This document shows positions 4,715 to 61,627 of a stretch of 64,000 nucleotides of DNA, in pieces. The first letter of the stretch is position 1. Each line of letters begins with the position of its first letter. The notes under the pieces were generated by a model. That model did not search any database. It was not told the DNA's origin and was given only the letters and a program-made list of their open reading frames with translations. Source of the DNA: an uncultured Chlamydiae bacterium (GTDB lineage Bacteria; Chlamydiota; Chlamydiia; Chlamydiales; Parachlamydiaceae); contig CAVWGN010000001.1 in assembly GCA_963754655.1 (NCBI GenBank), positions 1,088,001 through 1,152,000 on the forward strand, read 5' to 3'. The position numbers and the translations under genes are program-made.

Positions 4715-5173
4715 GGTGTTTTTCTAAAAAAATTTGACACTTGCAGCTCTTCAGGCTGCATGACACAACTCACTCATACCCAGGGTTATGGTGTTCATTT
4801 TGTGCAAAAAATGAGCTTTATTTTTCACAATAATTGGCATAGTTGAATTGAAGGTCGCATGTTTATGCCGTCCTTTCAGGACTCGATATCTTTTTGATAG
4901 AACCCAGGCCTCCGCTTCGCTGCGACCTGGGCTGTAACATAACGGCCCTTCAGGCCTTAACAAGAGATGTTTAAGTCCCTCTTCTATAGTCCCTAAATCA
5001 TCTTTTTGTTAAGGCCTGAAGGGCCGTTATGTTACAGCCCAGGTCGCAGCGAAGCGGAGGCCTGGGTTCTATCAAAAAGATATCGAGTCCTGAAAGGACG
5101 GCATAAACATGCGACCTTCAATTCAACTATGCCAATTATTGTGAAAAAATTAGTATAAGGTGGTTAAGTACTA
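4715..5173. mobile_element. Composite palindromic MITE/REPIN-like element (P1, copy 1)
   Basis: Perfect 143-bp inverted arms 4821-4963 and 5006-5148 around a 42-bp loop; second copy at 23039-23426. Left flank 4715-4780 matches 61021-61080. GTGGTTAAGTACTA at 5160-5173 matches the end at 23468-23481. Confidence 0.9.
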
Positions 5174-5478
5174 AATGGTCATTAGGAAAGTGCAAAAGCT
5201 CTTATTCAGGTGAAAGAGTAGTTAAGATAAAACTTGCAGAGGAATTAAGAGACGTAAATCGATTTATTTTATTTAGTTTCAATGGGTTAAACATTTTAAA
5301 ATAAACGGATTCTATCTTTCATTCGCGTTTAAGAATTAAAATTGTAAAAAGTTGAGAGTATTCTTTCATTTCAATTCATTGAAGATTTATTAGAATAGAA
5401 ATAGTGATAAACAAATCAATAATATCCTCTTATTTAAGAGGAGGTGATTTGTAAATTTATGACCCATAAGGAAGGCAT

Positions 5479-6561
5479 ATGATTCCAATTATTACATTTT
5501 CAAATGATACTGATAAAATCCCACATTTAAAAAATTTAAGAGAAGGAGATAAGAGTGAAAAGGAAGAGTTGGAAACACAAGTTTCTGATTCTTTTCTAAA
5601 ACCTCCACGCAGTCCGCGGAAGATTAAATATTTGAGTTCTTCGCATAATTCTTTATTTTCCACTACTGAGTATGAGGAAACAAATAAAAACTCACTGACT
5701 AAAGCGTCAAATGAGTCTGAGTTAGAGCGTGATTTAAAATCCTTACGCAAAGTCACTAGAACTAAAAGCAAAATTAAGAAAGTCACATCAGACCAGATGT
5801 CTCTTTCTACTTCGGCACCGTCACCAAGTTTAAAAAAACAAACGACTCAACCCTTCAATTTTACAAATTTATTGAGTCCCTCAGTCATTAAAAAAGAAAA
5901 AGAAAAAGAAGTTTTGACTCCACGACAAACAGAATCGATAGCTTGTTCCAAAGATAAAAAAAAAGCTAAAAAGATTAAAGACACTAAATCTATGGAGAAT
6001 TTAGCATTAAAAATACCTCCCTTCTTTCGATATTCGCAAACAGTAGCAGAAAAAAAGAATCAAGATAGACACTCTTCAAATTCCACTCTATTTTCAAATG
6101 AACAAGAAATTTCCATTCAAACATTAAAAGAAATTTTAAGTCATAATCAACCTATTTCATTCAAGCAAATTTACCACATTACTTCTTTGCTAATACCATC
6201 TGGAGCTTATAATTATTTACATCTAATGTGCGAAGAAAAATATGCAGAAGAAAATATTGAGTTTCTATTTGATTATCTTCATTGGATTCATACCCAAGAA
6301 AATCAAGCTATTTTAAATCATGAAGTCCTTGAAGATTTGATTGAAAAATATATAAATAACGATACAGAGAAAACTATCAATATTGAAGGCAACTCGCGTT
6401 TGTTAGTTATCCAAGCTTTTAAGAATAAAAATTTCAATGAAGTTGCAAGACTCTTAAAGGAAATTAGTGAAATGATTTCATTGCTTCTTTGGCTAAATAT
6501 ATTTTCTGAAGCTTTTGCAGAAGACGAAACACAAGAATTAATTTTAAAATTCATTCTTTAA
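5479..6561 (+). CDS. Putative effector with S/K-rich N-terminus and C-terminal RGS-like domain
   Basis: CEEKYAEENIEFL...LIEKYINNDTEKTINIEGNSR resembles the RGS motifs E(F/Y)SEENIEFW and EVNID. Confidence 0.65.
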   Translation: MIPIITFSNDTDKIPHLKNLREGDKSEKEELETQVSDSFLKPPRSPRKIKYLSSSHNSLFSTTEYEETNKNSLTKASNESELERDLKSLRKVTRTKSKIKKVTSDQMSLSTSAPSPSLKKQTTQPFNFTNLLSPSVIKKEKEKEVLTPRQTESIACSKDKKKAKKIKDTKSMENLALKIPPFFRYSQTVAEKKNQDRHSSNSTLFSNEQEISIQTLKEILSHNQPISFKQIYHITSLLIPSGAYNYLHLMCEEKYAEENIEFLFDYLHWIHTQENQAILNHEVLEDLIEKYINNDTEKTINIEGNSRLLVIQAFKNKNFNEVARLLKEISEMISLLLWLNIFSEAFAEDETQELILKFIL

Positions 6562-7228
6562 GTAGGAGAGGCTTATGGGAGATACGATGGCAATCGGTAA
6601 GATGCAATTGCTGTTGTTCAATTTTGATTTTAATGAATCCGCAATTGTCTACAATCCAACGCCTTTTTGGAGTAAAGGACAGATGGTCAAGAAAGGCGCG
6701 CAATACGCCGCCATGCGAAACAACGAGCAGGGATTGCCCTATATAGTGAGTTGCAAGGGGAAATAAGAAATCGGTGACGCGTGTGTAGACAGAATGTGTT
6801 GTCTCGAGTTCTGGATGCCAAGCAGAATGAATATAGGTTTCTTGATTTAAAGCCTTTTCCGAAAGAAGAAAGGGACGGATTCTTTCTTCAAATTTGTCTT
6901 TATTAAGGCCTTCTAGTGCACCCGCGCTTCTTTCACGAAGAGCAGAGGAAGCCATCACAGAAAGAACACGTGGCTTAAGAATCAACTCAGCTGTTTGCTG
7001 TGCTCGAATTAAATCGGAAGAGAATACAGCAGAAAAGGGGATATCCGCTAATAATTCTCCTAAATGAGCCGCCTGGGAAATTCCTGTGGCATTCAAGGGA
7101 ATGTCAGTGTGCCCTTGAATGCGCTCTTGAAGATTCCAATCTGTTTCTCCATGCCGAACAAAATAAATTTCACAAGCCGAACAAAAGGTATTCATGCAAT
7201 TGACATTTTTTCTTTGATTTGTAAACAA
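6551..7228 (-). CDS. Histidine phosphatase (phosphoglycerate mutase family)
   Basis: [28 protein letters not shown]. True start may be 7195. Confidence 0.9.
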
Positions 7229-8133
7229 GGGCTATCGATAGCCACTCCCATGGCATGTAATCCATTATCGACATAAATAATCGAGCCTGTAACTGCAGAA
7301 GCGAGAGGAGAAGCGAGAAAAGCAGCCACATTGCCAATTTCTGAAGCTTGTAATTTCTTATTGGATAGAGGAGCATTTGTTTCTGAATAATTAATCATGC
7401 GATCAATAAATCCAATTGCTTTTGCAGCTCGACTGCCAAGAGGTCCTGCCGAGATGGTATTGACTCGAATATTCCATTTTTGCCCAGCTTCCCAAGCCAA
7501 AGTGCGCGTATCGCTTTCAAGAGCTGCCTTAGCTGAACTCATTCCTCCACCATAGCCTGGAATAATTTTTTCAGAGGCAATATAGGACAAAGAAAGAGCT
7601 AAGCCAAAAGGATTCATTAGTGGACCAAAATGAGCAATTAAGCTCACGAAAGAGTAAGCAGAAGAACCTATAGCGGCTAAATAGCCCTTGCGGCTAGTGG
7701 CAAGAAGGGGATTCTGCACTTCAGGAGCATTGGCTAGAGAATGAACGAGAATATCAAGTGTTCCAAAATCGCGTGCAACTGCTTCTGCAACTTCGGAAAT
7801 GGTATAATGGCCAACATCTTTATAGCGCTTATTCTCACGAATTTCTTCAGGAACTTCTTCAGGTCGATCAAAGGAGGCATCTAATGGATAAATTTTAGCA
7901 AATTCCATCAAAGAACCATTAGATAGACGGCGGGAAGCATCGAATTTGCCAGCGTTCAGACTCGTTGTAAAAATTTTTAAAATGGGAGTCCATGTTCCTA
8001 CAAGAATCGTGGCTCCTGCTTCAGCCAAAGATTTAGCAATTGCCCATCCAAAGCCTTGATCATCTCCAATGCCAGCAATAAAGGCAATTTTGCCTTTGAG
8101 ATTAATTTCCAACATAAATTTACTCTCTCCCAT
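7192..8133 (-). CDS. fabI: Enoyl-ACP reductase (plant/chlamydial type)
   Basis: [41 protein letters not shown]. Confidence 0.95.
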
Positions 8134-8315
8134 TCTTAATGTAAATCAGAGACTATTTTAAAGAGTTTTTTGTTTATTGCAAATGATATTAATTCTATTT
8201 AAAAGGAGTATTTCAACTTATCTCCTTATTCTAATTTAGGCATTTTAACTTAAATTTTTTTGACATTGATTAGGGGAGAATGCCATCATCTATTCAATTT
8301 CCAGATAAACGAGTA

Positions 8316-9110
8316 TTAGCTTCCCGCAGAGTGATAACGACGCACTCCTAGCTTCCATAGCTGGCAGGCACAGTAAAGAAATACAATGCCGGTAAGAGGA
8401 AAGAGGAATCCCATCCAAAAAGGTTGAGGCTGGTGGCGCAGCATGATGGCTATGGGGTAATAAGCCACGCATCCTAAAGGGATGATAAAGGTGAAAAAAA
8501 GGCGAAATCCCTCGTTATAAATACTCAAAGGATATTGTCCCGATTCCAATCCTCCATAAGTTGCAATATTCATCAACTCCAATGTCTCAGTTGTCCAAAA
8601 GGAAAGGGTAGCTTGAATAATAAATAAAGCATAAAAGAGACTGCCTGTTCCAATCATAGCTAGCACTAGCATGAATCCTTGTGAGGAGAATAACGGCAAT
8701 TGCAGTTCGCGGCAGCTCCAAAGTAAAACAACCCATCCTTGCAAAAAACGCCCAATTCGCATTGTCTGAAAATCATGCGTGGCAATTTGAAGGAGGGGAC
8801 TACGAGGCCTCAAAAGAACGCGATCAAATTCGCCATGTTTAACCATTTGGCTAAAAGAGTCAAATCCTCTTGCAGAAGCTTCGGCAGCGGCAAATCCCAT
8901 ATGCATAATTCCATAAATTAAGGCAAGCTCTGCTAATGTCCAACCTTGAACCATTTTGAATCGATCAAAAAGCACCCAAATGCCAAAAATATCGATAAAT
9001 GTTGAAAGAAAGTGCGTTACTGACAACATGAGAAAAGAAGCGCGGTATTGCATTTGCGATTTTATCGCAATTCCAATTAACCTAAAGTAAAGGCGGATAG
9101 CTTCAAGCAT
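8316..9110 (-). CDS. ABC-2 family (DUF990-type) permease
   Basis: QYRASF, GEFDRVLLRP, YPLSIY, about 6 TM segments. Confidence 0.85.
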   Translation of the reverse strand: MLEAIRLYFRLIGIAIKSQMQYRASFLMLSVTHFLSTFIDIFGIWVLFDRFKMVQGWTLAELALIYGIMHMGFAAAEASARGFDSFSQMVKHGEFDRVLLRPRSPLLQIATHDFQTMRIGRFLQGWVVLLWSCRELQLPLFSSQGFMLVLAMIGTGSLFYALFIIQATLSFWTTETLELMNIATYGGLESGQYPLSIYNEGFRLFFTFIIPLGCVAYYPIAIMLRHQPQPFWMGFLFPLTGIVFLYCACQLWKLGVRRYHSAGS

Positions 9111-9113
9111 GAT

Positions 9114-9905
9114 TTATCCCCCTTGAATCACAAAGTGATTGATTGCCTTTTTTACAAGAAGTCTGCCTGCCCCTACGAATCCTAATACCCAAAAAAACTG
9201 GAAAGCAAAATAAGAAAGAGCTTCGCTGCTTGGAATGATACCTGTATACAGGCGGCAAGGAATATCAATGATACAGCGGAAAGGCTGAATATTTAAAAAG
9301 GATTGCATCCATTCTGGAAATAAGGGCAATGGAACAACCATTCCAGAAAAAACAACCACAACATGGGGGAGCAATCGTAAAATTCCCTCTCCCGATACAG
9401 TCCAAAAAAGCGTCATGATGACCAAAGTAGTAATAGCAGAAGAGAGCAAGGCAGAAAACACTAAAGAGACGCCAAAAGCTGCCGCTGCTGGCAAAGAAAT
9501 CGGCTGCGCAAGACCGAAAAATAATTGTGCTAGAATAAATAATGGAATACTACGCAATAACGTGGGAATCAAACGCATTGCCATTGAGCGGCAAAACCAT
9601 AGCCAATAAAGATCTAACGGACGAAGAAGCTCAAATGCAACATTTCCACTTTTCACTTGTGCTTCAACTTCTTTATCAATATTCCAAGGGAGCAATTGCA
9701 GCAATGTCTGGCCCATCCAAATGAAAGTAATTGCCTGTTCTAGAGAGATAGGCTGAGTCTCAGAAGCTTGAGCATAAAATGCCGTCAAAATCATGACTTT
9801 GATAATGCCCCAAAAAAGCTGAGTCGAAAGCCCTGCAAGCGCTGCTGCCCGGTATTGAAGCAAGATGGCAAAACGCGCTTTGAGAATGGCAAGGTAAGCT
9901 TTCAT
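9114..9905 (-). CDS. ABC-2 family (DUF990-type) permease
   Basis: QYRAA, GNVAFELLRP, SGMVVPLPLFP. Confidence 0.85.
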   Translation of the reverse strand: MKAYLAILKARFAILLQYRAAALAGLSTQLFWGIIKVMILTAFYAQASETQPISLEQAITFIWMGQTLLQLLPWNIDKEVEAQVKSGNVAFELLRPLDLYWLWFCRSMAMRLIPTLLRSIPLFILAQLFFGLAQPISLPAAAAFGVSLVFSALLSSAITTLVIMTLFWTVSGEGILRLLPHVVVVFSGMVVPLPLFPEWMQSFLNIQPFRCIIDIPCRLYTGIIPSSEALSYFAFQFFWVLGFVGAGRLLVKKAINHFVIQGG

Positions 9906-10885
9906 ATATTGACATCTCGATAAAGCTTGGCAATAATTTCTTCAATCGGAGGATTTTCCGCATAAAGATCGCGGATAGCATGCCGTGTAGCGATGCGGTT
10001 AATCAGTTGGGTTGTAGAAGTAAAGTTAGGATTATAGCTCAACCAGACACGATGCCCTTCTTGTTTGACAATCTGAGCTTGCGAATCGCTAATTGCGTCA
10101 TATTCATTTTCTAGATCAATGATCAAACGCCGTTCAGGAGCAATTTTCTTGCGAAGATCCGCAAGAGAGCCATCTAAAAAGAGGCGCCCTTCATTCAAAA
10201 TAAGAACACGAGTGCAAAGTGATTCGATATCATCCATATCATGTGTCGTCAGCAAAATAGTTACTTTTTTTTCTTTATTGAGATAACGAATAAAATCTCT
10301 TACAGCTAATTTACTGACAGCATCTAATCCGATTGTTGGTTCATCAAGAAATAAGATTTTAGGAGAATGTAGCAAAGAAGCTGCAATATCGCAACGCATC
10401 CGCTGCCCAAGACTGAGCTGGCGAACGGGAACATCCAGTAGCTTAGAGAGTTCTAGAGTATCAATCAGAGAAGTTAAAGTGCGCCGATAAGCCTCACCGG
10501 AAATGCGATAGATATCTTTGAGCAAATCAAAAGATTCAATAACAGGCAAGTCCCACCAAAGCTGTGTTCTCTGGCCAAAGATTACTCCTAGCTGCTGGAC
10601 AGTTTCGATCCTATGTTGCCAAGGTGTCTTTCCCATCACTTTTACATTACCGTCATTTGGGACAAGAATGCCAGAAAGAATTTTAACTGTCGTACTCTTT
10701 CCTGCACCATTGGGGCCGATATAGCCCACTAATTCCCCTTCCTCAATTTGAAATGAGATGTGATCAAGAGCCGTTTTAATGGTATAGTCGCGCAAAAAAA
10801 GGGAGACCAAGCCACCAAATAAGCCCTTCTTACGCTTTGGAATTCGGAATTCTTTACACAAATGATGGACGGATATCAAACTCAT
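9902..10885 (-). CDS. ABC transporter ATP-binding protein
   Basis: Walker A GPNGAGKST, signature LSLGQ, Walker B LFLDEPT. Confidence 0.95.
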   Translation of the reverse strand: MSLISVHHLCKEFRIPKRKKGLFGGLVSLFLRDYTIKTALDHISFQIEEGELVGYIGPNGAGKSTTVKILSGILVPNDGNVKVMGKTPWQHRIETVQQLGVIFGQRTQLWWDLPVIESFDLLKDIYRISGEAYRRTLTSLIDTLELSKLLDVPVRQLSLGQRMRCDIAASLLHSPKILFLDEPTIGLDAVSKLAVRDFIRYLNKEKKVTILLTTHDMDDIESLCTRVLILNEGRLFLDGSLADLRKKIAPERRLIIDLENEYDAISDSQAQIVKQEGHRVWLSYNPNFTSTTQLINRIATRHAIRDLYAENPPIEEIIAKLYRDVNI

Positions 10886-11088
10886 GACTTTCTAACTTTG
10901 AATAGAAGTGCTGAAGAAGTGTATAAAAATTTTTTTTTATTGACAAGAACCAAATCAAGATAGAGAGGTCAACCTGTCAATGCAGGAAAATCAAAAATAT
11001 TAAACTAAAAACTTAATATATATATGATAGATATGCTATTGAGAATAGATATTGGGTTTTTTTTTATCAATTTCAATATAGGGGGTTT

Positions 11089-12549: not shown

Positions 12550-12557
12550 AGAAAAAG

Positions 12558-12590
12558 AAATAGGTCTCACGAATCTGTTGAGACCTATTT
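12558..12590. terminator. Probable bidirectional intrinsic terminator
   Basis: AAATAGGTCTC...GAGACCTATTT stem between convergent genes. Confidence 0.6.
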
Positions 12591-12649
12591 TAAAATTAAG
12601 CTTTGCGTTGAGAAAAGCTAATGGATGACAAATGTACTGTTTTGTCAAA

Positions 12650-15022: not shown

Positions 15023-15154
15023 AACAAACCTTGTTAAGTTTTTTTTAGTGTCGTTTATTATAGTAAATTCATGCATTTCAATCTAGAGCTATTTAAATCA
15101 AAAAAAAGCCGCTTTTTTTAAATATATTTTATAATTATTTACTACTTTATTAGG

Positions 15155-15338
15155 TAGGCGTTTTTACTAAAAACATGCGACACTGGTAGCTCTTCAGGCT
15201 GAATAACATAACCTATTCATAACCAAAGCGTTGCTCTGTTAGTGTACTTTTAGACCTGCAATCTACTATTGCAAGCTGCGATTTACCGCATCAGTCTGAA
15301 GAGCTGCCAGTGTAAGGGATTTTAGTAAAAATACCTAC
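15155..15338. repeat. REP-like palindromic element on the axis of the inverted duplication
   Basis: TTTTTACTAAAA...CACTGGTAGCTCTTCAGGCTGA (15161-15202) is inverted at 15291-15331; same family as 4715-4780 and 61021-61080. Confidence 0.75.
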
Positions 15339-15477
15339 TTAATAAACTAGTAAATAATTATAAAATATATTTAAAACGCAAAAGCAATTTTTTTATTATT
15401 TAAATAACCCTAGATTGAAATGTGTAGATTCAATATAATACACAAACTTAATAAAAATTTGCTAAAAAGGTTTTGTT

Positions 15478-17739: not shown

Positions 17740-17803
17740 TTCCTTTCTTAACCTCCTTAATAAGCTTACTCAATGGCAAAGTACGCCGTAACAAACAATA
17801 AGT

Positions 17804-22917: not shown

Positions 22918-23481
22918 TAGTATTCAACCACATGAGCTTTTGCCTATTGGGACCGTTTCAAAGCCCCGGGGTTGAATTGGCGTAAGTGGGTCAATATTAG
23001 CAATATGGACCCAGTTACGCCAATTCAACCCGGGACTAGGGTGTTCATTTTGTGCAAAAAATGAGCTTATTTTTTACAATAATTGGCATAGTTAAATTGA
23101 AGGTCGCATATTTATGCCGTCCTTTCAGGACTCGATGTCTTTTTGATAGAACCCAGGCCTCCGCTTCGCTGCGACCTGCTGTAACATAACGGCCCTTCAG
23201 GCCTTAACAAAAAGATGATTTAGGGACTATAGAAGAGGGACTTAAACATCTCTTGTTAAGGCCTGAAGGGCCGTTATGTTACAGCCCAGGTCGCAGCGAA
23301 GCGGAGGCCTGGGTTCTATCAAAAAGACATCGAGTCCTGAAAGGACGGCATAAATATGCGACCTTCAATTTAACTATGCCAATTATTGTAAAAAATAAGC
23401 TCATTTTTTGCACAAAATGAACACCCTAGTCCCGGGGCTTTGAAGAGTCTAAATACACAAAACTAATGTGGTTGAGTACTA
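22918..23481. mobile_element. Nested palindromic element: outer TAGTA(C/T)TCAACCAC ends, small hairpin, inserted P1 copy 2
   Basis: Outer imperfect IR 22918-22970 / 23431-23481. Hairpin GTTGAATTGGCGTAA...TTACGCCAATTCAAC at 22971-23029. P1 arms 23039-23210 / 23253-23426 with GGGTGTTC ends. Confidence 0.9.
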
Positions 23482-23520
23482 GGCTTTTTATAATTGAATG
23501 TCAAAAATAAAAGAAAAAAT

Positions 23521-45578: not shown

Positions 45579-45628
45579 TATAGGGGTGCAATTAAAAGTG
45601 GAAGTTTACAAGGTGAGGTTCCACATTC

Positions 45629-46731
45629 TAGTACTCAACCACATTAGTTTTTGCCCATTGGAACCGCTTCAAAGCCTTGGGATTGGGATGAGATGATTCT
45701 CTTGTAGTCCTTCAGACTACATGACGATGGAGAATCTAAACCAGGGCGATGCCCTGGGCTATTTTTATTTGAAGCCTTTCAGGCTCTAAACATTGGACAT
45801 TTTTAGAAGACCTTCTTCTATAACGATTGTAGGGCCCATGCCTATTAAATAGTACATACTCCACATCATTTTAGAGATGGTTAACAAACAAGATGTCTCA
45901 TGTTCAGAGCCTGAAAGGCTTCAAATAAAATAGCCCAGGGCCGGGAATTAACAAAGAACTGTTTTTGGGCTTGATATTCTTCATGTCAATTTAACAATAC
46001 CCCGCCTGTAACAGGCTTTAAAGGCATACTTCCCGAAAATGACGGAAAAACATCAAAGCCCAAAACAGTTCTTTGTTAAGTCCCGGCCATAGGCTAGGAA
46101 CGAAATGCTTTTGGCAAACTCCAGAAGCTAAATTTGTCGCTCAAGCGGCGTTAGCCGCGCATGGATAGTAGCCGTGGGTGTAGGCGCAAGCCGGAACCCA
46201 CGGTGTATGGTAAAAAAAATGAAGCCACGTTAGTGGCGTAGGAAATGTGATTGTGGAGCAATTTTTATTTAAACGAATGCTACGCCACTAACGTGGCTCA
46301 AATTTGTTTTTTGGGTAACCGTGGGTTTCGGCTTGCGCCTACACCCACGGCTACTATCCATGCGCGGCTAACGCCGCTCGTCGCTGAGGGAAAGGATATG
46401 GATCAAGCAACATTGCAAAAACAAAGATAAAAAATTCCGATTACCTAGCCATATGCCGGGACTTAACAAAGAACTGTTTTGGGCTTGATGTTTTTCGCGT
46501 TATTTTCGATAAATATGCCTCTAAAGCCTGTTAAAGGCGGGGTATTGTTAAATTGACACGAAGAATATCAAGCCAAAAAACAGTTCTTTGTTAAGTCCCG
46601 GCCCTGGGCATCGCTCTGGGTTAGATTAGCCCTCGTCATGTAGTCTGAGGGACTACAAGAAAATCATCTCATCCCAATCCCAAAGCTTTGAAGCACTCCC
46701 AATAGGCTAAAACTAATGTAATGGAGTACTA
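45629..46731. mobile_element. 1.1-kb nested palindromic composite
   Basis: Outer IR 45629-45758 / 46602-46731; inner hairpin 45751-45941; two inverted 144-bp self-palindromic units 45942-46085 and 46457-46600; central palindrome 46144-46378. Confidence 0.9.
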
Positions 46732-48248: not shown

Positions 48249-48426
48249 ACTTCCTCCCACATTTTTGTCTTAAGCGAACTCATATATAATTAAGAATTTT
48301 AATGTCAAAAACTTTTGAGTGTTAGGCGCATCTAGTACTCGATTTTCTTTTCTAGAAAATGGATTTTAACTCCAATTTTGACATTTAAATGATCTAGAAT
48401 TCGTAAGTTAATTTTTAATTTTTTGC

Positions 48427-48856
48427 GCGGGAGTTCTAGATTGTTTGATCCTCGAATCCATAATGACCATTTCTGCTAGCGTGGAAGCTGTTTCAGCAGG
48501 GTGTGATTAAATCTGAGACTTTATATTTTTTAGCAGATTGATACGAAATGATAGGGCGGCGGTAGCCGCTTTCAGTGGGAAGCCCCGTATGAAGCGAGCT
48601 TGCGAGCGGAATGCGGGGTGGGCATCAATAAAATATAAACCGCGGAAGCGGTGGGAGGGATCTTACGCTGCTTCCGCAGCTCAATGCTATCGTGCCTACA
48701 CCCCGCATTCCGCTCGCAAGCTCGCTTCATACGGGGCTTCCCACTGAAAGCGGCTACCGCCGCCCTATCATTTCGTATCAATCTGCTAAAAAATATAAAG
48801 TCTCAGATTTAATCACACCCGTTTCAGCAACGTTCATGCGATATTGCTGTGCAAAA
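48427..48856 (-). pseudogene. 99-bp duplicate of pepF interior, split by a MITE
   Basis: 48427-48498 plus 48830-48856 equals 44161-44259 with 3 mismatches. Confidence 0.9.
48499..48820. mobile_element. 322-bp palindromic MITE with 9-bp TSD
   Basis: Perfect 122-bp arms (48499-48620 / 48699-48820), ends GGGTGTGATTAAATC, flanked by GTTTCAGCA at 48490-48498 and 48821-48829. Confidence 0.95.
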
Positions 48857-49038
48857 TTTTCTTAATTAAACCAAATCTTCGTCTCTTTTTTAATTGATGA
48901 TCGCCCTAATAAAATCTTGTCCGAATGTGTTAGAGGTCTATTTTTTGGAAGCATGGTTTTTTCTTCTATTTTTCAAAGTCATAGCGAATTTTTTTAGATT
49001 TATTATATACATAGAATAAATGACAACTAAAGGCTAAT

Positions 49039-49607: not shown

Positions 49608-49612
49608 CAGTA

Positions 49613-50869: not shown

Positions 50870-51057
50870 GCCTCAATTGCATGAGAAGAACTTGCATGGA
50901 AAGCAACAAAGTGACCTATTTTAATAGACATTTAGGTTAATCTTATCAACCTAAATGCCTTGTAAGTGAAGATCGAAAACCAGTACTCCTTTTTTATTTG
51001 ACATAGTCTAACATATTTTTATATACAAAGTAAATATTTCATTTTCTATTTTATTTT

Positions 51058-54648: not shown

Positions 54649-54742
54649 AGTGAATCATTTAACGTCAAATTTTGCAACTAAACATTTCTCTAAAAGCTCA
54701 TAATTTGTATAATGGAATCGTTTTAATTAGCAGTGGCAAATA

Positions 54743-56824
54743 ATGACAACCATTCGTAAAACTCTTATAGATATTCTTGAATCTCAAGCTTTTGATCGGT
54801 TAGAGCCTTTCAAACAATTCGCTGTATGGAAAAGCTTTACGCAAGATGAACGTGTCCTTTTGGCTCGCCTGTTGGTAATGCAGGGAGCTCATCAATTGGC
54901 GCAAGGTAATCATCAAGCACTAGAAAGCTTTGACGCTGCGGGACAAATCTCTTCAAATGCTCCCGACATTTTATATCAGCAAGGCAGTGTTTTAAGTGGT
55001 TATCGAGAAAATATCAGATGTTTAACTCTTGCTTGTCAATCACTTGCGCGTGCTTTACAGCAAGATCCATTCCTTTTTAAAGCGTGGTATCTCCGTGCAG
55101 AAGTTTTGATTGATATTGGACTTTTTGAAGGAGAAGCTTCCTATTTTGTGGAGGCGCATCAATGCTTTGAAAGAGCTTATTCTATTCTTGAGAAAGCCGA
55201 AGAGCCGTTTCGTCAAGAGGATTTTTTTTGGAAATGGGGCTTATGCTTAGCTTCTTTGGGTAAAGTTTCAGGAGAACCTTTAGATTTTCATCGGTCAATT
55301 GAAAAATATCGTCATTGTTATGAACTGGGCTGCCAAGAAGCAAAGTTCTTTAATGATTTTGGGCATAGTTTAGCCGATTTGGCTTCTCTTTTAGATAAAC
55401 CAGAATACTTTGCCGAGGCCCTTATCCTTTTTAATCGAGCCGTTCGTCAAGATTCCCATCCCTTTGATGGATGGTATAATCAAGCCTGCTGCATTCAGAG
55501 TTTAGCGGAATACAAGATCGATGAAAAATTATTAGAGCAAGCTGACTACAGTTTTCAAAGAGCTGCTGAAATTAATCCTCAACATAGCCAGGTTTGGCTT
55601 AAATGGGGACAGCTTGAAATGACAATTGGAAAGGTAAAACGGGATCAGCACAGGATAGAAGCGAGTTTGTTGAAATTTGCTCATGCGCATCAATTAGAGC
55701 TTGGACATCCTCAAGTTTTAAGTAGTTGGGCAGAAGCTGAACTTTTTCTAGGTGCTCAGGAAGATAGATTAGAGCTCATTCACTCTGCTAGGCTCAAGAT
55801 TTTAAATAGCTTAGAAATTCAGCCAGAAGATCCCAATGCATGGTATTTATATGGATCTTGTTTGAGCGAATTAGGACGCTATTTTAACGATGAGGATTAT
55901 TATAACCAAGCAATCGAAAAGTTTCAGTTTGGCCTTTCTCTCACCCGTCAACACCCTCTTCTTTGGTATGGATTGGCTCTCGCGCACTTTGCGTTAGGAG
56001 AGTTAACGGAACAGCAAGCTTTATTTGAAAAAGCAGTCCGTTATTGCTCACGTGTCATCGAATGTGGAGGAGAGGGATTTGCTCAATTTTGGAATGATTG
56101 GGGAGTTGCTCTATTGAAGCTTGCAGAAATGACGCAGCAAGCTTCGCATGTGGAAATGGCAATTGAAAAATTTGAACGTGCTCTTAAACAGCCACTTCAG
56201 GCTGGAGAAGGAGAAGATGTTGATTTAGAATGGATTTATAACTACGGCTGTGCATTTGATCTTTTAGGAGATTTAAAAGAGGAACCTTCTTATTTTGAAA
56301 AGGCAGTTCAAGTCCTGACTCAAATTCTTCAGTTAGATCCCAATTACATTTTAGCACGTTATAATTTAGCACTTGCTTTATCACATTTAGGCGAGGCTAT
56401 GTTTGAAGTTGAGTTTTATCATAAGGCGATTGAACATTTTCAAATTCTCTTAGATCAAAATCCAGAAGATGACATGATTCATTTAGATTTTGGAATGTCT
56501 TTAACCAATCTAGGACTCCTGATTCATGATGCTCATCATCCCGAACGTTCTCAGACGCTTTATCGTCAATCAGAGAACCATCTCATGCAGGCAGCAGCAT
56601 TAGGCAATACACAAGCTTATTATCAGCTGGCTGGTCTGTATTCCATTACAGGACACAATGACCCTGCCATGCATTATCTCGAGCGCGCACAATTTTGCGG
56701 CACATTGCCTAGCATTGACGATTTGTTGCATGATGAGTGGCTGGAGAATTTGAGGCAAACACCCTCTTTTCGACAATTTATCAATGAGCTATCAAGTCAG
56801 CAGCAATCAATGGATGATAAATAG
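54743..56824 (+). CDS. TPR-repeat protein
   Basis: Multiple W..WG..L...A...F..A patterns; C-terminal AYYQLAGLYS...AMHYLE. Confidence 0.8.
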   Translation: MTTIRKTLIDILESQAFDRLEPFKQFAVWKSFTQDERVLLARLLVMQGAHQLAQGNHQALESFDAAGQISSNAPDILYQQGSVLSGYRENIRCLTLACQSLARALQQDPFLFKAWYLRAEVLIDIGLFEGEASYFVEAHQCFERAYSILEKAEEPFRQEDFFWKWGLCLASLGKVSGEPLDFHRSIEKYRHCYELGCQEAKFFNDFGHSLADLASLLDKPEYFAEALILFNRAVRQDSHPFDGWYNQACCIQSLAEYKIDEKLLEQADYSFQRAAEINPQHSQVWLKWGQLEMTIGKVKRDQHRIEASLLKFAHAHQLELGHPQVLSSWAEAELFLGAQEDRLELIHSARLKILNSLEIQPEDPNAWYLYGSCLSELGRYFNDEDYYNQAIEKFQFGLSLTRQHPLLWYGLALAHFALGELTEQQALFEKAVRYCSRVIECGGEGFAQFWNDWGVALLKLAEMTQQASHVEMAIEKFERALKQPLQAGEGEDVDLEWIYNYGCAFDLLGDLKEEPSYFEKAVQVLTQILQLDPNYILARYNLALALSHLGEAMFEVEFYHKAIEHFQILLDQNPEDDMIHLDFGMSLTNLGLLIHDAHHPERSQTLYRQSENHLMQAAALGNTQAYYQLAGLYSITGHNDPAMHYLERAQFCGTLPSIDDLLHDEWLENLRQTPSFRQFINELSSQQQSMDDK

Positions 56825-57169
56825 ACCTGTTTCTTGGAAATTTGCGCATCCCCCTTTAAAGCAAAATCACATTTGCAATCCTTCACTTTGAATGAATACT
56901 AAGTTTGATAAAATGCGTTGTTTAAACAACACTTTCCAATAGGCGCTAATTTTTCCTATTATTAGGCAATCAAAATATCGCATTATTGTCAATTCTAATA
57001 ATGTCCCTTTTAATCAATTTTTTAGGGTTTATATCAATTTATTTAATTTATATTTATTAGTAAATTAATAATTAAAATTAATTAACTTTTTAATTTTAAT
57101 ATTATAAAATAAAAATAGGTAAGTTTAATTTTAATAAGTTGATTCTTTTAATTATGAGTCGGAGTTTTT

Positions 57170-59524
57170 ATGTTTCCAATCTCTGCTCCAAATCCCTTGC
57201 TCCATGTTCCTTTTGACATTGATAATCAAAATGTATTGCATTCTGAGTGGCAAAAAGAACCCGTTACGGCATTTTTCGGAGGAAAAATGCAGCAAATCCG
57301 CGTATTTATCCAGAATGATGGCAATATTGTGCTGCAAAAGGTAGAGCAAACGATGAGGGAGCGATTGTTCAATTTTATTCGCAATTTAGCAGGTCAAAAA
57401 GAAGAAGGAATCTCTATTGTGTCAACTCAAGAAAGTCATCTTGCCAGAGAGATTTCCTCGTTGAAAGAAAAAGAAAAACAATGGTTGCAAGAAATATTGA
57501 ATTCAAAATCTGTTCCCGATATTCCCACTGCGATTAATACATTGATGGAGGAGATTGCAAAGAAAACAGATCAAGAATTTTCTAGTGCTATTCAACAACA
57601 AGGCGCCACACAAATTCCAACTGAATTAGAGGCACCGCCTCAGGTTCCTTCGTTTGCGTTTATTAAGATCACTGATTATGTTAATTCTCATTTAACTGAA
57701 AATCCTGTGATTAATCGGAATATGAAAGCAATGGCTGAAGCATTAGATCAACATGTACAAACAAAATATGCAAAACAAATCAAACATGATATTAAACATG
57801 CACAGCAACGATCACCAGAACCTTTAACAGATAAACAAAAAAAAGCTATTGAGCAAAGAGTGCAAAAAAAATTTCAAGAATCGCTGATATTTTTTACACA
57901 GGTCGATAAGAGAAAAAGCCCTGACAATCCTCTGGAAAGAATGGCTTCTACCTTTGCTTATTTGAATCCTTCTTCCGAAGTTTCTTTCATTGAGGGAAGC
58001 TCTCAATTTGCTGCACAGTTAGCCATCTTGGCATTTGAACAACATCGTGAAAATCCTGAGCAATATGTGTCCCATGGCTTTGATCATTCAATAAATGTTG
58101 CCAATTATATGCGCGCTGTATTGAAAATGAATCCACAGATTGTAGAGGCTATGTCTAGCAAATACAAAATTAGCGAAGGTGAAGCACTCTTTCTGCTCGA
58201 AAATGTTGCTTTCTTGCATGACACGGGCTATCCCTGCGTGGGTCATCGCACTAAAGCTGTTCATGGGATTTCAGGAGCAGATCTCATCCTTTCTATGCAT
58301 CCCATGTTTGATAAAATCATCACATCTCCTGAGGTTGATAAGGAAGTTTTGTTTAACGATTTTCGCAATGCGATTATGTTCCATTCTGCCGATAAAGTTG
58401 AATCGGCATTTGGAGCTAAAATTCAGACGACAATGGGAACCTTCCTTACTGAACCAAAAAATATTGTGACTGTTCTTTCTAATTTTTATGATCCGAAAAA
58501 AAATCCTAGTTATACTCCTCGTTACGCTTTAGAAATTTTCGTACAAAATCCTCAAGAAAAAGAGGAGATTGAAAAGGCTCTTGTTGAGTCCCGGGCAGTA
58601 TTTGAAAGTCTATATGGAAAGACAATTGTTCTTCCTAAAGTGAACATTCATGAAGGACTCTTTCAGGGGCGTTTTGCCGATTTGGAAATCAATAAGGACA
58701 AATTGATTGGATTAGAGTTTAGTGTCACAGATCTCTTAGAAAATCCATTAAATATGATTCGGCTAGTGGATAATATGGACATGCGTAATACGCGATTAAC
58801 TCCCACTCAAAATGAAACCTCATTCAGGGAAATCTATGCTCGTTTAGGCGATCATCAAGGAGTGAGTCAGCTTGCTGTTGAACTTGAAACGTTTGAACGA
58901 CGCATGGACAAAAAAAAACAAGCGATCCCCAAAGAAGATCAAGGCCAACAAGCGCTATTAGCAGAAGAGGTTGAAAAGGGGACTCAAGAAATTCTAAAAC
59001 GTCATTCTTCTCAGATGGAAGGAGATATTTTGGAAAAGCAAGTCAAAAATGCCCTACAATCCAGTTCATTTACTGAAATTAAGACGGTGAAAGAAGCACG
59101 TGATTTATTAAATCAAGTGTTAATTAATGTGATTTTTAAACAAGATCAATGGATGCAACTCCCCATAGAAAAGCAAGAAGATGTGCGTTTCATAGGCATG
59201 CAGCAATCAAGCTATGATTTTCGCCATTTTGGAGGAACCGAAGCAATCACTGAAGTCCAACTAAAGTCGATTCCTCGTTTAGAACCAGAGCCAGGACAAG
59301 GAGATATTCCATGTGTTGTAGTCACTGTGAATCGACAACACTTTGAAGATTTAAATAAAGTCAAAGTGAATGAAGAGGGTATCCTCGTTGGAATTGGTGA
59401 ATATCAAATCTGGCGAGCCAGTGATGCCTATAAAAGCCTCGTTTTGGGAAATACAAAAGTGCAATTACAAATTATGGATGAAGCAGGCTTACTTGTAGAG
59501 TGCATTGTGAATCAACAACAATAG
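57170..59524 (+). CDS. Large protein with split HD-phosphohydrolase-like motifs
   Basis: SHGFDHSINV, FLHDTGY, HGISG, MFHS and distant RLVDNMD. Confidence 0.55.
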   Translation: MFPISAPNPLLHVPFDIDNQNVLHSEWQKEPVTAFFGGKMQQIRVFIQNDGNIVLQKVEQTMRERLFNFIRNLAGQKEEGISIVSTQESHLAREISSLKEKEKQWLQEILNSKSVPDIPTAINTLMEEIAKKTDQEFSSAIQQQGATQIPTELEAPPQVPSFAFIKITDYVNSHLTENPVINRNMKAMAEALDQHVQTKYAKQIKHDIKHAQQRSPEPLTDKQKKAIEQRVQKKFQESLIFFTQVDKRKSPDNPLERMASTFAYLNPSSEVSFIEGSSQFAAQLAILAFEQHRENPEQYVSHGFDHSINVANYMRAVLKMNPQIVEAMSSKYKISEGEALFLLENVAFLHDTGYPCVGHRTKAVHGISGADLILSMHPMFDKIITSPEVDKEVLFNDFRNAIMFHSADKVESAFGAKIQTTMGTFLTEPKNIVTVLSNFYDPKKNPSYTPRYALEIFVQNPQEKEEIEKALVESRAVFESLYGKTIVLPKVNIHEGLFQGRFADLEINKDKLIGLEFSVTDLLENPLNMIRLVDNMDMRNTRLTPTQNETSFREIYARLGDHQGVSQLAVELETFERRMDKKKQAIPKEDQGQQALLAEEVEKGTQEILKRHSSQMEGDILEKQVKNALQSSSFTEIKTVKEARDLLNQVLINVIFKQDQWMQLPIEKQEDVRFIGMQQSSYDFRHFGGTEAITEVQLKSIPRLEPEPGQGDIPCVVVTVNRQHFEDLNKVKVNEEGILVGIGEYQIWRASDAYKSLVLGNTKVQLQIMDEAGLLVECIVNQQQ

Positions 59525-59534
59525 GAGTATAAAC

Positions 59535-60215
59535 ATGAATTCAGAGATGAGAATAGATTCTATAAGGCCCTTTGATTCTCCTTTAGAGCATCAGACACTC
59601 TCCGACCAAATTTTAAATAATTTAGTACGACTATCGGCAAAAGAGAAAGATGAAAAAAAGGTTTTTGTGGAAAATAAAAATACTCCAATTGAAACTTATC
59701 ATTATGGCAATGAATCGGCAAAGATCATCAAGCGATTACATGATGCAACTGTAGGAGAAGAGGGAGGCGAGGTTAGGTATTATGTTGAATGGGTTGATTA
59801 TAGACATTTTCAATGGTGGAAAAATGCTTTGGAAAAACTGCCTATTTATTTTTTAAATATTCCTGTGGATTATTTTGCAAGCGAAGCCGGCTTTCCACAT
59901 CCTGAACTTCTTTTTTCTCCAGAAAAGGTCACAGAACATTATTTGTGGAATCCTCAGAATGCAGATAGGCGAATTGCATGTAAACAATGGGTGGAAGATC
60001 AGGTTGTCAAGATACTGAATCCTAGTCTTTCGCCTGATTACCGAGTTCAATTTTTAGAAGGATATTTTCGATTGATTCCTCTCACACCAGAGGCAATTGA
60101 GAGTCATTTAATAGACAATGGAGCTTACAATAAAGCAAAATCAGTGATAGGTAATGCTATCAAGCCTTTACAAGAGACTTATGAGAGAATGAATAAAAAA
60201 TTGAAGGGAAACTGA
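59535..60215 (+). CDS. Hypothetical protein
   Basis: AGGAG RBS, 10 bp after the upstream gene. Confidence 0.7.
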   Translation: MNSEMRIDSIRPFDSPLEHQTLSDQILNNLVRLSAKEKDEKKVFVENKNTPIETYHYGNESAKIIKRLHDATVGEEGGEVRYYVEWVDYRHFQWWKNALEKLPIYFLNIPVDYFASEAGFPHPELLFSPEKVTEHYLWNPQNADRRIACKQWVEDQVVKILNPSLSPDYRVQFLEGYFRLIPLTPEAIESHLIDNGAYNKAKSVIGNAIKPLQETYERMNKKLKGN

Positions 60216-60268
60216 TAAGCGCGATCAAGTTGACTGCTTTTTTGAAATCGGAAAGAGAAAATGCTAGC

Positions 60269-60901
60269 TTAAAAGCCAAAGCGCTCTTTGCGTACCTGCA
60301 TGAGAAGGATGCCTAAGCGATTTAATCCCTTGCCATCACTTCCATATCCCCAATAAGCATCGAACGGGCTAGCCTCAATTAAATAGCAGGTTCCCGTTTT
60401 GTGCAGCACATTGCTTAAATGTGCATCTTGAAATTTACATCTTAGAATCTCTAACATGATATCTTCTTTGATATCATGCCAATCGGGTCTGCTTAAGTAT
60501 TGATTTTGTTGAGCAATTTGAAAAGCTTCTCGTGAAGTGGGTGTATTCATAATTTGCTGGCGTACATTTTGAGCGTCCTTAGAAGCCCAATTAAATTTTT
60601 CTGCTTGAAAAGCATGTTCTGAAGTTCTCCAGTTAAGGCCTAAATATTGAACACCATGTAACCCATCTTTGCGCCAATTCTCATAAAAATTAGTTAATTC
60701 GTAATAGTGTTCCCCTTTATTATAAAAATAAATGATAGCGTGCTTTTGAATGTTTTCTGGTTCAACCGCAAAAGAATGCATTCTTTTGCTTAAGGCAGGG
60801 CCCCCCGACCGTATATCAATCGCTGCTCGTCGTTCAACATTTGCATTAACTTGAGCAAAAGCAGTGATTGCAAACAACACAACTAAATAAAAATGTTTCA
60901 T
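60269..60901 (-). CDS. NADAR (YbiA-like) protein with signal peptide
   Basis: LTNFY, TSEHAFQAEKF, RPDW..IK..IM, EASPFDAYWG...GLNRLGILLMQVR. Confidence 0.9.
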   Translation of the reverse strand: MKHFYLVVLFAITAFAQVNANVERRAAIDIRSGGPALSKRMHSFAVEPENIQKHAIIYFYNKGEHYYELTNFYENWRKDGLHGVQYLGLNWRTSEHAFQAEKFNWASKDAQNVRQQIMNTPTSREAFQIAQQNQYLSRPDWHDIKEDIMLEILRCKFQDAHLSNVLHKTGTCYLIEASPFDAYWGYGSDGKGLNRLGILLMQVRKERFGF

Positions 60902-61020
60902 ATAAAACCTGTTATTGTATTATAATAAATAATAAATAATGACATGCTTTTTAATTAAAGTAAACAGTTTTAATTATATTAAATTGTTTAATAATAAGGC
61001 TTGTTTTGCCTTAAGCTGTT

Positions 61021-61627
61021 TTTTTACTAAAAATATTTGACACTTGCAGCCCTTCAGGCTGCATGACACAACTCACTCATATATCCAGGACGTTGCTCCA
61101 TACGCATCAAGCTAAGAGATGAGCGTAAGCTACGCGATGCATTCAGTCGCCGCGCCGCTTCGCTCTGGGCTCTATGCGTGGTTTGAGAACCCACCGTTCG
61201 GTCGCCCTCCGGGCTCTGTCACGGTGGGTTAGGATCAGTCGTCCTACGGACTCTAGCGGCATTATCAGAATGCCTTGACTACCATTCAATGGCTTCTAAA
61301 TTGCCGCTAGAGTCCGTAGGACGACTGATCCTAGCCCACCGTGACAGAGCCCGGAGGGCGACCGAACGGTGGGTTCTCAAACCCCGCACAGAGCCCAGAG
61401 CGAAGCGGCGCGGCGACTGAATGCATCGCGTAGCTTACGCTCATCTCTTAGCTTGATGCTTATGGGGCGTTGCTCTGGTCTATTGTACTTACCGCCTTTC
61501 AGGCTCTGAACATTGGACATTTTTGGAAGACCTCCTTCTATAACGTTTGTAGGGGCTATGCCTATTAAATGGTACCTACTCCATAATCATTTTAGGAACG
61601 GTTAACAAAAAATGTCCAATGTTCAGA
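61021..61627. mobile_element. REP-like host element interrupted by a 366-bp palindrome
   Basis: 61021-61080 matches 4719-4780; 61494-61627 matches 45774-45907. Insert 61099-61464 has 163-bp arms (4 mismatches) and is flanked by GG(A/G)CGTTGCTC. Confidence 0.88.

Follow-up and report, generated by a model that had tools for sequence, protein, structure and literature searches.

A 64,000-nucleotide stretch of the chromosome of an uncultured Chlamydiae bacterium (the window) holds five palindromes, which a sequence-only reading had described as unrelated in sequence, alike in their hairpins and possibly recognized by an HUH Y1 enzyme. We asked what these palindromes are, which enzymes might recognize them and how they have spread.

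Inverted doublets of a single module type

All five palindromes lie at the positions originally given for them, and the sequence, read directly, yields the cores as quoted: a small hairpin (hp1), a spacer, AGCC, a large stem, GGT and, about 20 nt later, a second hairpin. Each consists of two copies of a single module type in inverted orientation, with modules pointing outward in P1, 45k and 61.3k and inward in 46.1k and E48, again as claimed. Long inverted repeats mark P1 at 4821-5148 (143-nt arms, 100% identity) and 23029-23436 (150 nt, 100%), E48 at 48499-48820 (122 nt, 100%) and the element at 61095-61468 (167 nt, 97%); a further one at 45933-46609 (166 nt, 88%) encloses a nested pair at 46144-46378 (61 nt, 98%).

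In its general form the module runs from hp1 through a spacer of 10-12 nt and AG to the large hairpin, usually followed by a second small hairpin; outside the window, the genome has a sixth family that retains the same frame. The hairpin loops are GNRA-like, and the E48 stem contains one T.G pair. The tetranucleotide feet ACAG, ATAG, GTAG, GAAG and CTAG occur as listed, but AG alone is common to all. Likewise, the AGCC...GGT frame holds for the five window cores, but GGT is not universal in other phyla, where the base 3' of the stem varies: of 79 modules, 38 have A there and 35 have T. Ahead of the stem, 62 of these 79 have AG, a feature that the scan did not demand. The features of the window are listed below, with strand where one applies; scores refer to the Rfam model RF01687 and to R1, a model built from foreign modules only.

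4715..4778: fragment of repeat family 'X' with its own small hairpin, outside the module; 16-93 copies
4779..5148: P1 MITE copy, right-truncated; boundaries from a BLAST pile-up
4870-4956 (-) and 5013-5099 (+): modules of the outward P1 doublet within 4779..5148; RF01687 35.2 bits, R1 35.9 bits
22918..23483 (parts 22918-23036 and 23429-23483): host palindromic repeat, split by a P1 MITE; ~100-145 copies
23039..23426: complete 388-bp P1 MITE, with TA at 23037-23038 and 23427-23428
~23119-23205 (-): damaged left P1 module, large hairpin with a 2-nt deletion; R1 20.2 bits
23260-23346 (+): intact P1 module of the 388-bp MITE; R1 35.9 bits
45704..45785 (-): 45k module, left half of an outward doublet; R1 35.5 bits, E 1e-7
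45908..45940 (+): 45k module, right half; R1 24.6 bits
45941..46087, second copy 46456-46602: 147-bp palindromic mini-repeat, from genome end pairs
46136..46386: 46.1k inward doublet, modules 46145-46237 (+) and 46284-46377 (-)
48490..48498 (+), second copy 48821-48829: 9-bp target-site duplication of E48; empty site in the same-genus genome G115
48499..48820: E48 MITE, 322 bp, modules 48556-48651 (+) and ~48668-48763 (-)
61096..61467: 61.3k outward doublet, modules ~61146-61251 (-) and ~61312-61417 (+)
61473..61627: fragment, centre of a 45k-type doublet, by comparison with the 45k sequence

The nested repeats break the large hairpin of the right 45k module at 45941, and it resumes at ~46603-46627; the 147-bp mini-repeat has 118 of its 129 end pairs spaced ~150 bp apart. 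A direct 5-nt repeat (61091-61095 and 61468-61472) bounds the 61.3k doublet. The 'X' sequence of 4715..4778 is found again at 61018-61081.

Chance palindromes do not account for this pattern. A strict descriptor (4-bp hp1, spacer of 8-13 nt, AGCC, a perfect stem of at least 7 bp, then T) found 153 sites in the genome, a number that overstates independence since the copies belong to few repeat families, versus 1, 1 and 0 in three chromosomes simulated with a first-order Markov model. When the stem minimum was lowered to 6 bp, P1 accounted for 238 sites, 46.1k for 67, 61.3k for 63, 45k for ~36, a Y45 variant for ~6 and the sixth family for 6, besides 17 false matches at the P1 centre and ~25 singletons. 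E48 escapes the descriptor because of the T.G pair in its stem. The genome holds ~526 module cores.

Y1 genes and an Rfam motif

The window was said to contain no Y1 gene, which is correct; such genes occur elsewhere on the chromosome. PF01797 has ten matches in the genome; the enzymes score 81-92 bits (curated cut-off 23) and have the HUH motif and the catalytic tyrosine. We inspected ~600 nt on each side of eight Y1 genes. The suspected link to Y1 enzymes was borne out on genomic evidence for all five families, each of which has a chromosomal Y1 gene with its own module adjoining; by BLAST and flank reading, each window core pairs with one Y1 gene only. The P1 module lies 9 nt past the stop codon of its gene (90% identity over 87 nt) and again 52 nt 5' of the start (79% over 61 nt). 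The 45k module is found 5' of three copies of its gene, the 46.1k module 42 nt past the stop (87% over 60 nt), the E48 module upstream, and a whole 61.3k doublet 92 nt past the stop. For Y_46 and Y_61, the module lies on a single side of the gene.

The enzymes are five diverged paralogues of 148-150 aa, in which DHxHxL and KYIxNQ (HUH and catalytic Y) align with TnpA of ISHp608. They pass the NCBIfam IS200/IS605 model (63-73 bits, cut-off 55). Against the NCBIfam model REP_Tyr_transpos (cut-off 80), four of the five score 22.6-25.3 bits and Y_61 has no match at E <=0.01. The motifs DHxH, WQ and Y---Q--HH, together with a C-terminal tail, fit TnpAY1 subclass 1.2 of Quentin, Siguier, Chandler and Fichant (2018; PMC6006769), an assignment made by eye against Table 1 of that paper. 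As presented there, members are ~148 aa long, carry DH[IV]H, WQ, Y---Q--HH and a conserved C-terminal tail, and occur in low copy number as divergent paralogues within a genome; the subclass is described as having no REP partner and as occurring mainly in Cyanobacteria and Bacteroidetes. The genes studied here depart from that published description in being flanked on both sides by conserved hairpin modules and in ranging over Chlamydiota and at least 10 other phyla.

Two other identities were rejected. The enzymes are not class-2 RAYTs, since the Y motif ends in Q rather than NP and the RAYT cut-off is missed. Nor are they classical IS200 elements: subclass 1.1 TnpA of IS200/IS605 (ISHp608, ISDra2) offers the closest solved structures and has hairpins near the gene ends, but the modules here are inverted rather than on the same strand, and the gene units are not multi-copy. 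They are divergent low-copy paralogues: the five Y1 genes of genome G064 share at most 65% DNA identity, and in genome G000 only three Y_45 copies, within 6 kb, are mutually close. Pieces of Y_45-like genes are present at several further loci.

Model comparisons suggest that the module equals the reverse complement of the Rfam motif Acido-Lenti-1 (RF01687) and that the five families are not unrelated, as had been supposed, but diverged members of this one known motif. Acido-Lenti-1 (Weinberg et al. 2010; PMC2864571) is catalogued as a small RNA of unknown function and was still so termed in 2026. Our literature search found no publication linking RF01687 to TnpAY1 subclass 1.2. Module and Acido-Lenti-1 share the same two-hairpin motif, but its mirror-image placement about the gene favours a DNA element. 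RF01687 reached the gathering score in 11 of the 20 foreign loci submitted, always adjoining the gene, on the minus strand upstream and the plus strand downstream. In the window, P1 scored 35.2 bits (gathering score 37) and the other four families gave no match at E <=1; elsewhere in the genome, 11 P1-type copies scored 37.1-38.7 bits. R1 recognized both P1 (35.9 bits) and 45k (35.5 bits), gave 9.8 bits for 46.1k (E 0.51), and had no match in the window to E48 or 61.3k at E <=1. For 46.1k, E48 and 61.3k, the link rests on adjacency within this genome and on comparable modules of chlamydial relatives (loci L015 and L031).

The pairing of gene and module is conserved across many phyla. In 17 of 29 chlamydial loci, homologous genes are bracketed by modules placed and oriented as expected; beyond Chlamydiota, in at least 10 phyla, they occur at 52 to 66 of 80 loci depending on scan strictness, the strict scan giving 52, with modules on both sides in 27. 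The distance from module to coding sequence is mostly 40-60 nt in these phyla; in chlamydiae, the second small hairpin adjoins the coding sequence. Protein clades retain their own stem type. Among 40 genomes of the same family, R1 matched 17 of the 20 with the gene (it had no match in G226, G230 and G245) versus 5 of the 20 without; in three of these five the matches were substantial, and those assemblies are 73-81% complete.

Probable DDE-type vehicles

The ends of the elements had been likened to DDE-type IS termini, and for P1 this is so: its ends match the inverted repeats of a multi-copy IS, with which they share about 100 nt on either side and whose 375-aa protein matches DDE_Tnp_1 at 52.8 bits. 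P1 thus shows every character of a MITE: terminal inverted repeats, a target duplication, no ORF, high copy number and an IS that shares its ends. Of the 15 distinct elements listed, at least 12 lie between TA dinucleotides. E48 has all of these characters except the IS partner: no autonomous element with its ends was found, all 22 end pairs spanning ~320 bp. Its 8-9 bp direct repeats are exact in 13 of 31 copies and near-exact in ~6 more, and in G115 the site is empty and the 9-mer stands there once. Within 57-nt terminal inverted repeats, E48 is a Y1 gene unit that has lost its ORF but kept both flanks: the alignment of its arms with the flanks of Y_E48 breaks off 6 nt short of the ATG and starts again 14 nt past the stop. 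The remaining families differ in detail. For 46.1k, 25 of 38 end pairs are ~250 bp apart, always with identical flanks, and for 61.3k direct 5-nt flanks occur in 2 of 10 pairs, the rest being inverted.

The target-site duplications of P1 and E48 point to spread by DDE transposition rather than by Y1 action, and high copy number seems to be owed mainly to DDE-type vehicles rather than to the Y1 enzymes. Shells of terminal inverted repeats with ~8-bp duplications, but with different ends, surround module doublets in another genus too; this recurrence might mean that the shells form part of the system and do not come from unrelated DDE elements. Insertion sequences such as IS1397 are known to insert into hairpin repeats. 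The present elements resemble MITEs and REP-targeting ISs in being short, gene-less and bounded by terminal inverted repeats with duplications, in one case with an IS partner, and in landing in hairpin loops. They differ in their interior, which is made up of the two flanks of a Y1 gene unit and not of a deleted DDE IS.

Competing readings and a model

Taken together, the data make it probable that the doublets are the end modules of REPtron-like Y1 subclass 1.2 units, joined in pairs and spread chiefly by DDE-type shells. The nearest competitor is a pure REPIN-RAYT system, in which the Y1 enzymes would themselves multiply and scatter the doublets, with the outer repeats and short duplications arising as side effects. 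The likeness to REPtrons (TnpA-REP, class 2 TnpAY1, of E. coli, Pseudomonas and Stenotrophomonas) is considerable: a low-copy Y1/HUH gene sits between inverted hairpin repeats, gene-less inverted doublets are dispersed, several enzyme-repeat pairs share a genome and gene and repeat co-occur. Cognate repeats that both flank the gene in inverted orientation and are dispersed are the arrangement of a REPtron with its REPINs, and we find it here. Five families match five genes, the module accompanies the gene across genomes (17/20 versus 5/20), E48 stems from a gene unit and lacks a DDE partner, gene pieces are scattered, and the shells of the second genus have different ends. On the other hand, the enzymes lack the class-2 Y---NP signature and miss the RAYT model, the repeat has two or three hairpins and a fixed spacer instead of GTAG plus one palindrome, and many doublets sit in shells with target duplications. 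IS200/IS605-type Y1 transposition inserts ssDNA beside a short target and makes no duplication, which is difficult to reconcile with the variable 8-9-bp duplications and verified empty site of E48, or with the IS ends and TA duplications of P1; the gene units, moreover, are divergent and not multi-copy. If a REPIN is taken, after Bertels and Rainey, as a doublet that replicates as a unit and is moved by a RAYT, the target duplications argue for another mover. We consider a pure REPIN-RAYT system unlikely.

It is still less probable that the elements are DDE MITEs that acquired hairpin-rich DNA by accident, with the Y1 genes as unrelated neighbours or domesticated. Terminal inverted repeats with target duplications, the IS partner of P1 and the passenger-like, invariably identical flanks of 46.1k would all be expected, but the five families carry five module types, each belonging to its own Y1 paralogue, and the pairing keeps position, orientation and spacing across phyla. 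Least credible is an RNA reading, with the module a small RNA or untranslated-region structure regulating Y1 or nearby genes: Rfam lists RF01687 among sRNA genes, the loops are GNRA-like, the T.G pair of E48 would be G.U in RNA and a 2026 preprint suggests a regulatory role, but the motif lies on both strands in mirror image about the gene (27/80 loci), forms 97-100% perfect DNA palindromes at hundreds of genome sites and has stem transitions free of strand bias (22 G.T versus 23 A.C in P1, 13 versus 15 in 45k).

According to the favoured model, of REPtron-like units spread by shells, two mirror-image modules, both pointing at the gene, would bracket each Y1 gene. When the DNA becomes single-stranded the hairpins would extrude and be bound by the cognate Y1 dimer, as membership in the enzyme family suggests; the stem sequence would confer specificity, and the unpaired AG and spacer would supply the cleavage context, by analogy with IS200/IS605 TnpA and RAYTs. 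Five enzyme-hairpin pairs could in this way operate side by side without cross-talk. Doublets would be carried in shells of terminal inverted repeats with target duplications (TA for P1, 8-9 bp for E48), those of the 46.1k type would be passengers of larger repeats, and fresh insertions would favour the loops of other modules' hairpins, leading to nesting.

A broader proposal, which we regard as possible though doubtful, is a pan-bacterial ssDNA recombination system in which subclass 1.2 Y1 enzymes and Acido-Lenti-1 modules cooperate with DDE transposons. Doublets would be positioned or kept at hairpins, including those inside IS ends, by the Y1 enzyme and then amplified by DDE transposition, and the extruded hairpins would serve as preferred landing sites. 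If true, five or six orthogonal enzyme-hairpin pairs would coexist in this one genome, as a natural set of sequence-specific recognizers of ssDNA hairpins.

Palindromes of the window and their common module

An inverted-repeat search and inspection of the sequences placed the five long, almost perfect palindromes where the sequence-only reading had put them, in a genome of 3.12 Mb plus a 35-kb contig with 38.8% G+C. Every window palindrome is one module, inverted and paired into a doublet. In the orientation of that reading, the module consists of a small hairpin (hp1), a 10-12 nt spacer, AG, a large hairpin whose stem has CC at its start and GG at its end, T, about 20 nt and a second small hairpin (hp2). 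The earlier assignment of directions also held: the modules point outward in the P1, 45k and 61.3k families and inward in 46.1k and E48. A strict descriptor of this arrangement, which demands perfect stems and therefore misses degraded copies, found 153 sites in the chromosome versus 1, 1 and 0 in three Markov simulations of it, well beyond chance. Since the chromosome hits all belong to a small set of repeat families, what matters is how many families arose independently. A sixth family was found outside the window, with 6 copies, and it retains hp1, the spacer, the AGCC...GGT frame and hp2. Modules with stems of at least 6 bp numbered 238 for P1, 67 for 46.1k, 63 for 61.3k, about 36 for 45k and about 6 for a Y45 variant; BLAST with the five window cores returned 283, 44, 71, 42 and 86 copies (about 526 in total), counts of repeats which are not independent events.

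A MAFFT alignment of 16 modules from six families was structurally poor, and no model was made from it. In a corrected count meant to reveal the functional strand, G.T outnumbered A.C in the stems by 73 to 47; the excess comes from E48 alone (30 versus 5) and is probably one inherited variant. Two other identities were ruled out: the hairpins at the five window loci inspected have no T run behind them, as a terminator would, and a HIP1-type cyanobacterial repeat has just 35 copies in the genome. A tRNA scan of the window gave no match. The loops of the P1 large hairpins (window 4921-4927 and 5042-5048) and a stretch of 61.3k (61400-61406) share a heptamer known to fold into a DNA mini-hairpin of exceptional stability, which would suit a role as single-stranded DNA.

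Y1 genes and the modules beside them

The genome has 10 matches to PF01797 (Y1_Tnp): one classical IS200-type gene, six intact genes coding for 148-150 aa and three fragments. For the P1 gene, Y_P1, a 163-aa frame from an upstream ATG is also possible. When the flanks of these genes were inspected and the window cores compared with them by BLAST, each of the five window families turned out to be paired with a Y1 gene, a partner that the sequence-only reading had proposed to look for in the genome.

Y1 genes paired with the module families (positions on contig C1 of the source genome)
395750-396202: P1 gene, module on both sides
2542103, 2544233 and fragment 2548084: 45k genes, module upstream, degraded copies downstream
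2802159-2802605: 46.1k gene, module only downstream
2939306-2939758: E48-type gene, module on both sides
2429353-2429802: 61.3k gene, complete doublet 92 nt downstream

The window cores did not match the flanks of other families' genes, except for P1 MITEs (gene-less mini-transposons) about 460 nt upstream of two copies of the 45k gene, Y_45. The five Y1 proteins are 37-49% identical to one another. All pass the cut-off of 55 of the NCBIfam IS200/IS605 model (63-73 bits) and none that of the RAYT model (80), to which four score 22.6-25.3 bits and the 61.3k protein has no match at E ≤0.01. Their best solved relative is the ISHp608 TnpA, with which the HUH motif and the tyrosine align. The motifs DHxH, WQ and KYIxNQKEHH and the C-terminal tail match those tabulated for TnpAY1 subclass 1.2 by Quentin et al. 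(2018, PMC6006769; their Table 1), who give this subclass without a DNA partner. The classical IS200-type gene (locus L001, C1 1646422-1646853, outside the window) reads DHVNLL at the HUH place, the second histidine being replaced, and no module was seen in its flanks. Coding fragments like Y_45 lie at 7-15 other loci outside the window, for example C1 428575-428921, 452856-453105 and 2512531-2528531, and one of them touches an E48 copy directly; these fragments suggest that gene-bearing units were formerly more numerous.

The pairing extends to other genomes. Within the phylum, a Y1 search at E up to 1e-10 was positive in 72 of 300 sampled genomes, both Y1 types being counted. At 17 of 29 chlamydial loci with full-length homologues, a strict-descriptor module lies at the expected place, that is, upstream on the plus strand and/or downstream on the minus strand, and the stems differ among loci. 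A search of all bacteria gave more than 592 relatives, from which 80 loci were kept; among their phyla are Acidobacteriota, Planctomycetota, Verrucomicrobiota, Bacteroidota, Kiritimatiellota and Myxococcota. A generic two-hairpin scan in which AGCC was not required found a module within 250 nt and pointing at the gene in 66 of the 80, two of these positive loci giving N-run artefacts too. A stricter scan found modules within 130 nt at 52 loci, on both sides at 27 of them; most lie 40-60 nt away from the coding sequence. These 79 modules have 40 distinct 8-nt stems, and AG stands ahead of the stem in 62. The T that closes the frame in the window is not general among the foreign modules: of the 79, 38 have A and 35 have T behind the stem. 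The two stems of one locus are closer to each other than shuffled pairs are (mean distance 1.56 versus 3.35; none of 2000 shuffles was as low). The source genome's five paralogues belong to separate clades of a protein tree; members from other genomes share these clades, which retain their own stem types.

Probable match of the module to Rfam Acido-Lenti-1

Taken from the other strand, the module corresponds to Acido-Lenti-1 of Rfam (RF01687), listed since 2010 as an RNA without a known function (Weinberg 2010) and still given as such in two 2026 preprints. The window P1 copies score 35.2 bits against this model (E 2.8e-4; gathering score 37), and the 45k, 46.1k, E48 and 61.3k copies of the window have no match at E up to 1; at the gathering score, the whole window has no Rfam match. 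Outside the window, the genome has 11 copies that score 37.1-38.7 bits among the 150 matches listed of 1077 candidates. When 20 of the 80 foreign loci were scanned, 11 had hits at or above the gathering score, 21 in all, invariably next to the gene, on the minus strand upstream and on the plus strand downstream. Such mirror symmetry around a gene is expected of a DNA repeat and not of an RNA gene, and this argues against the rival reading, implied by the Rfam entry, that the module functions as an RNA. The main-text literature searched on Acido-Lenti-1, TnpAY1 and REPIN/RAYT in planctomycetes or chlamydia gave no link between motif and transposase.

A model, R1, was built from foreign gene-flanking modules, without any chlamydial sequence. 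Fifty of these had short loops; 11 whose 4-nt loops MAFFT had shifted were left out, as was a single false hit, and in the alignment of the remaining 38, 13 of 13 pairs vary on both sides, changes given little weight since perfect stems were a selection criterion. Applied to the window with filters off, R1 scored 35.9 bits for P1 (three matches, E 8e-8), 35.5 bits for the intact 45k module, 24.6 bits for the interrupted 45k copy, 20.2 bits for the damaged P1 copy and just 9.8 bits (E 0.51) for 46.1k, with no match to E48 or 61.3k. Thus R1, an outside model, assigns P1 and 45k, two of the five families, to the pan-bacterial module. For 46.1k, E48 and 61.3k, putative membership rests on adjacency to the genes here and on like modules near relatives' orthologues (locus L015 for 46.1k, L031 for E48). 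Among 40 genomes of the source's family, R1 matches (E up to 1e-3) were present in 17 of 20 that carry a subclass-1.2 gene (E up to 1e-30) versus 5 of 20 that do not (Fisher's test, p = 3.3e-4, related genomes not being independent). Three of the five gene-less genomes with matches are assemblies 73-81% complete; three gene-bearing genomes have no match to R1, which covers one module type only. Several relatives have 65 to 120 or more matches, so amplification is not peculiar to the source genome.

Vehicles of the doublets

As the sequence-only reading had supposed for the element ends, the outer ~100 nt of P1 are the inverted repeats of an IS of DDE (cut-and-paste) type. This IS has at least 9 copies, and its ORF of 375-390 aa matches DDE_Tnp_1 (52.8 bits) and DUF772. 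In one copy a P1 doublet separates the end from the interior, and such a copy could plausibly have given rise to the P1 MITE. The commonest span of the latter is 388 bp (62 of 133 end pairs); at least 12 of 15 distinct elements listed have TA on either side, and the MITE always lies within a palindromic CCCnGGG context, the loops of other hairpin repeats.

E48 is a 322-bp element with 31 copies, flanked by exact 8-9-bp direct repeats of varying sequence in 13 and by near-exact ones in about 6 more. The window copy has the same 9-mer on both sides. Three genomes of the same genus were compared, about 70% identical in DNA, and one of them (G115) has the uninterrupted site with a single 9-mer; the window E48 truly inserted here and duplicated 9 bp. 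Its arms align to the flanks of the E48-type gene, stopping 6 nt short of the ATG and resuming 14 nt past the stop; E48 is thus the gene unit minus its ORF. No recognisable target duplications were found around this gene unit and two gene-less relatives, and a search for an IS with E48 ends found none. The sequence that hosts E48 (window 48400-48900) is ~70-87% identical to a same-genus genome and has no ORF of 150 aa across the site; E48 may have interrupted conserved non-coding sequence or a small gene.

The flanks of 46.1k doublets are always alike (25 of 38 end pairs), as for passengers of a larger repeat. The 61.3k doublets sit within CCCAGGGC-type hairpins, with direct 5-nt flanking repeats in 2 of 10, including the window copy, and inverted ones in the others; one doublet lies on the 35-kb second contig (C2 24230-24605), so the repeats are not limited to the chromosome. 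In G239, a genome of another genus, doublets lie within elements with different terminal repeats and ~8-bp duplications, clear in at least 4 of 10 copies listed, and the Y1 gene unit is without the terminal repeats of these elements. Multi-copy gene-bearing units were not found in a further genome, G064, whose genes are divergent paralogues.

Other repeats surround these elements. Window 45941-46087 and 46456-46602 are copies of a 147-bp mini-repeat that is palindromic, ends in the CCGGGACTTAAC type and has no Y1-type module; its genomic end pairs span ~150 bp in 118 of 129, often in or beside CCCnGGG hairpins. A family with its own GCAGC...GCTGC hairpin (window 4715-4778 and 61018-61081; tens of copies) adjoins module-bearing elements at 2 of 5 loci. 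Outer ends of the CTAGTACTC...AATGGAGTACTA type, with spans of 0.4 to 2.4 kb, frame element nests (window 45628-45700 with 46660-46731, and 22918-22960 with 23440-23483) and may be an additional MITE layer. At 15036-15460, two convergent TPR-protein genes are separated by an AT-rich nested inverted repeat that has no relation to the modules; its arms measure 81 and 57 nt and are 75-93% complementary.

Y1 enzymes of the IS200/IS605 type insert single-stranded DNA, and the target is not duplicated. The duplications of the E48, P1 and G239 type consequently point to DDE enzymes, and they speak against the closest rival, that the Y1 enzymes alone spread the doublets; a further reading would make the modules chance cargo. 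The best reading is a two-layer system of Y1 module sites and DDE-type amplification. The modules would be the DNA sites that subclass-1.2 Y1 enzymes recognise, in a REPtron-like layout, the gene-less doublets would derive from such modules, and DDE-type vehicles would have multiplied them and placed them in one another's hairpin loops. We infer that the Y1 enzymes act on the modules, mobilising, maintaining or resolving them. The REPIN-like system first proposed stands as to its REPtron-like arrangement of sites, and the spread departs from the simple REPIN picture through the target duplications.

What is new is the evidence for DDE vehicles as amplifiers of doublets and the presence of five or six putative orthogonal enzyme-hairpin pairs within a single genome. 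An Rfam family of unexplained RNA would gain a concrete identity, and subclass 1.2 of the Y1/HUH enzymes a DNA partner. Annotation pipelines tag module sites as small RNA genes, by which readings of neighbouring genes are misled, as in one example. Five diverged enzyme-hairpin pairs in one genome make a specificity matrix for hairpin reading by HUH enzymes and possibly orthogonal HUH tags. Y1 modules nested in DDE MITEs would be two transposition systems feeding on each other, their palindromes filling a 3.1-Mb genome of intracellular type.
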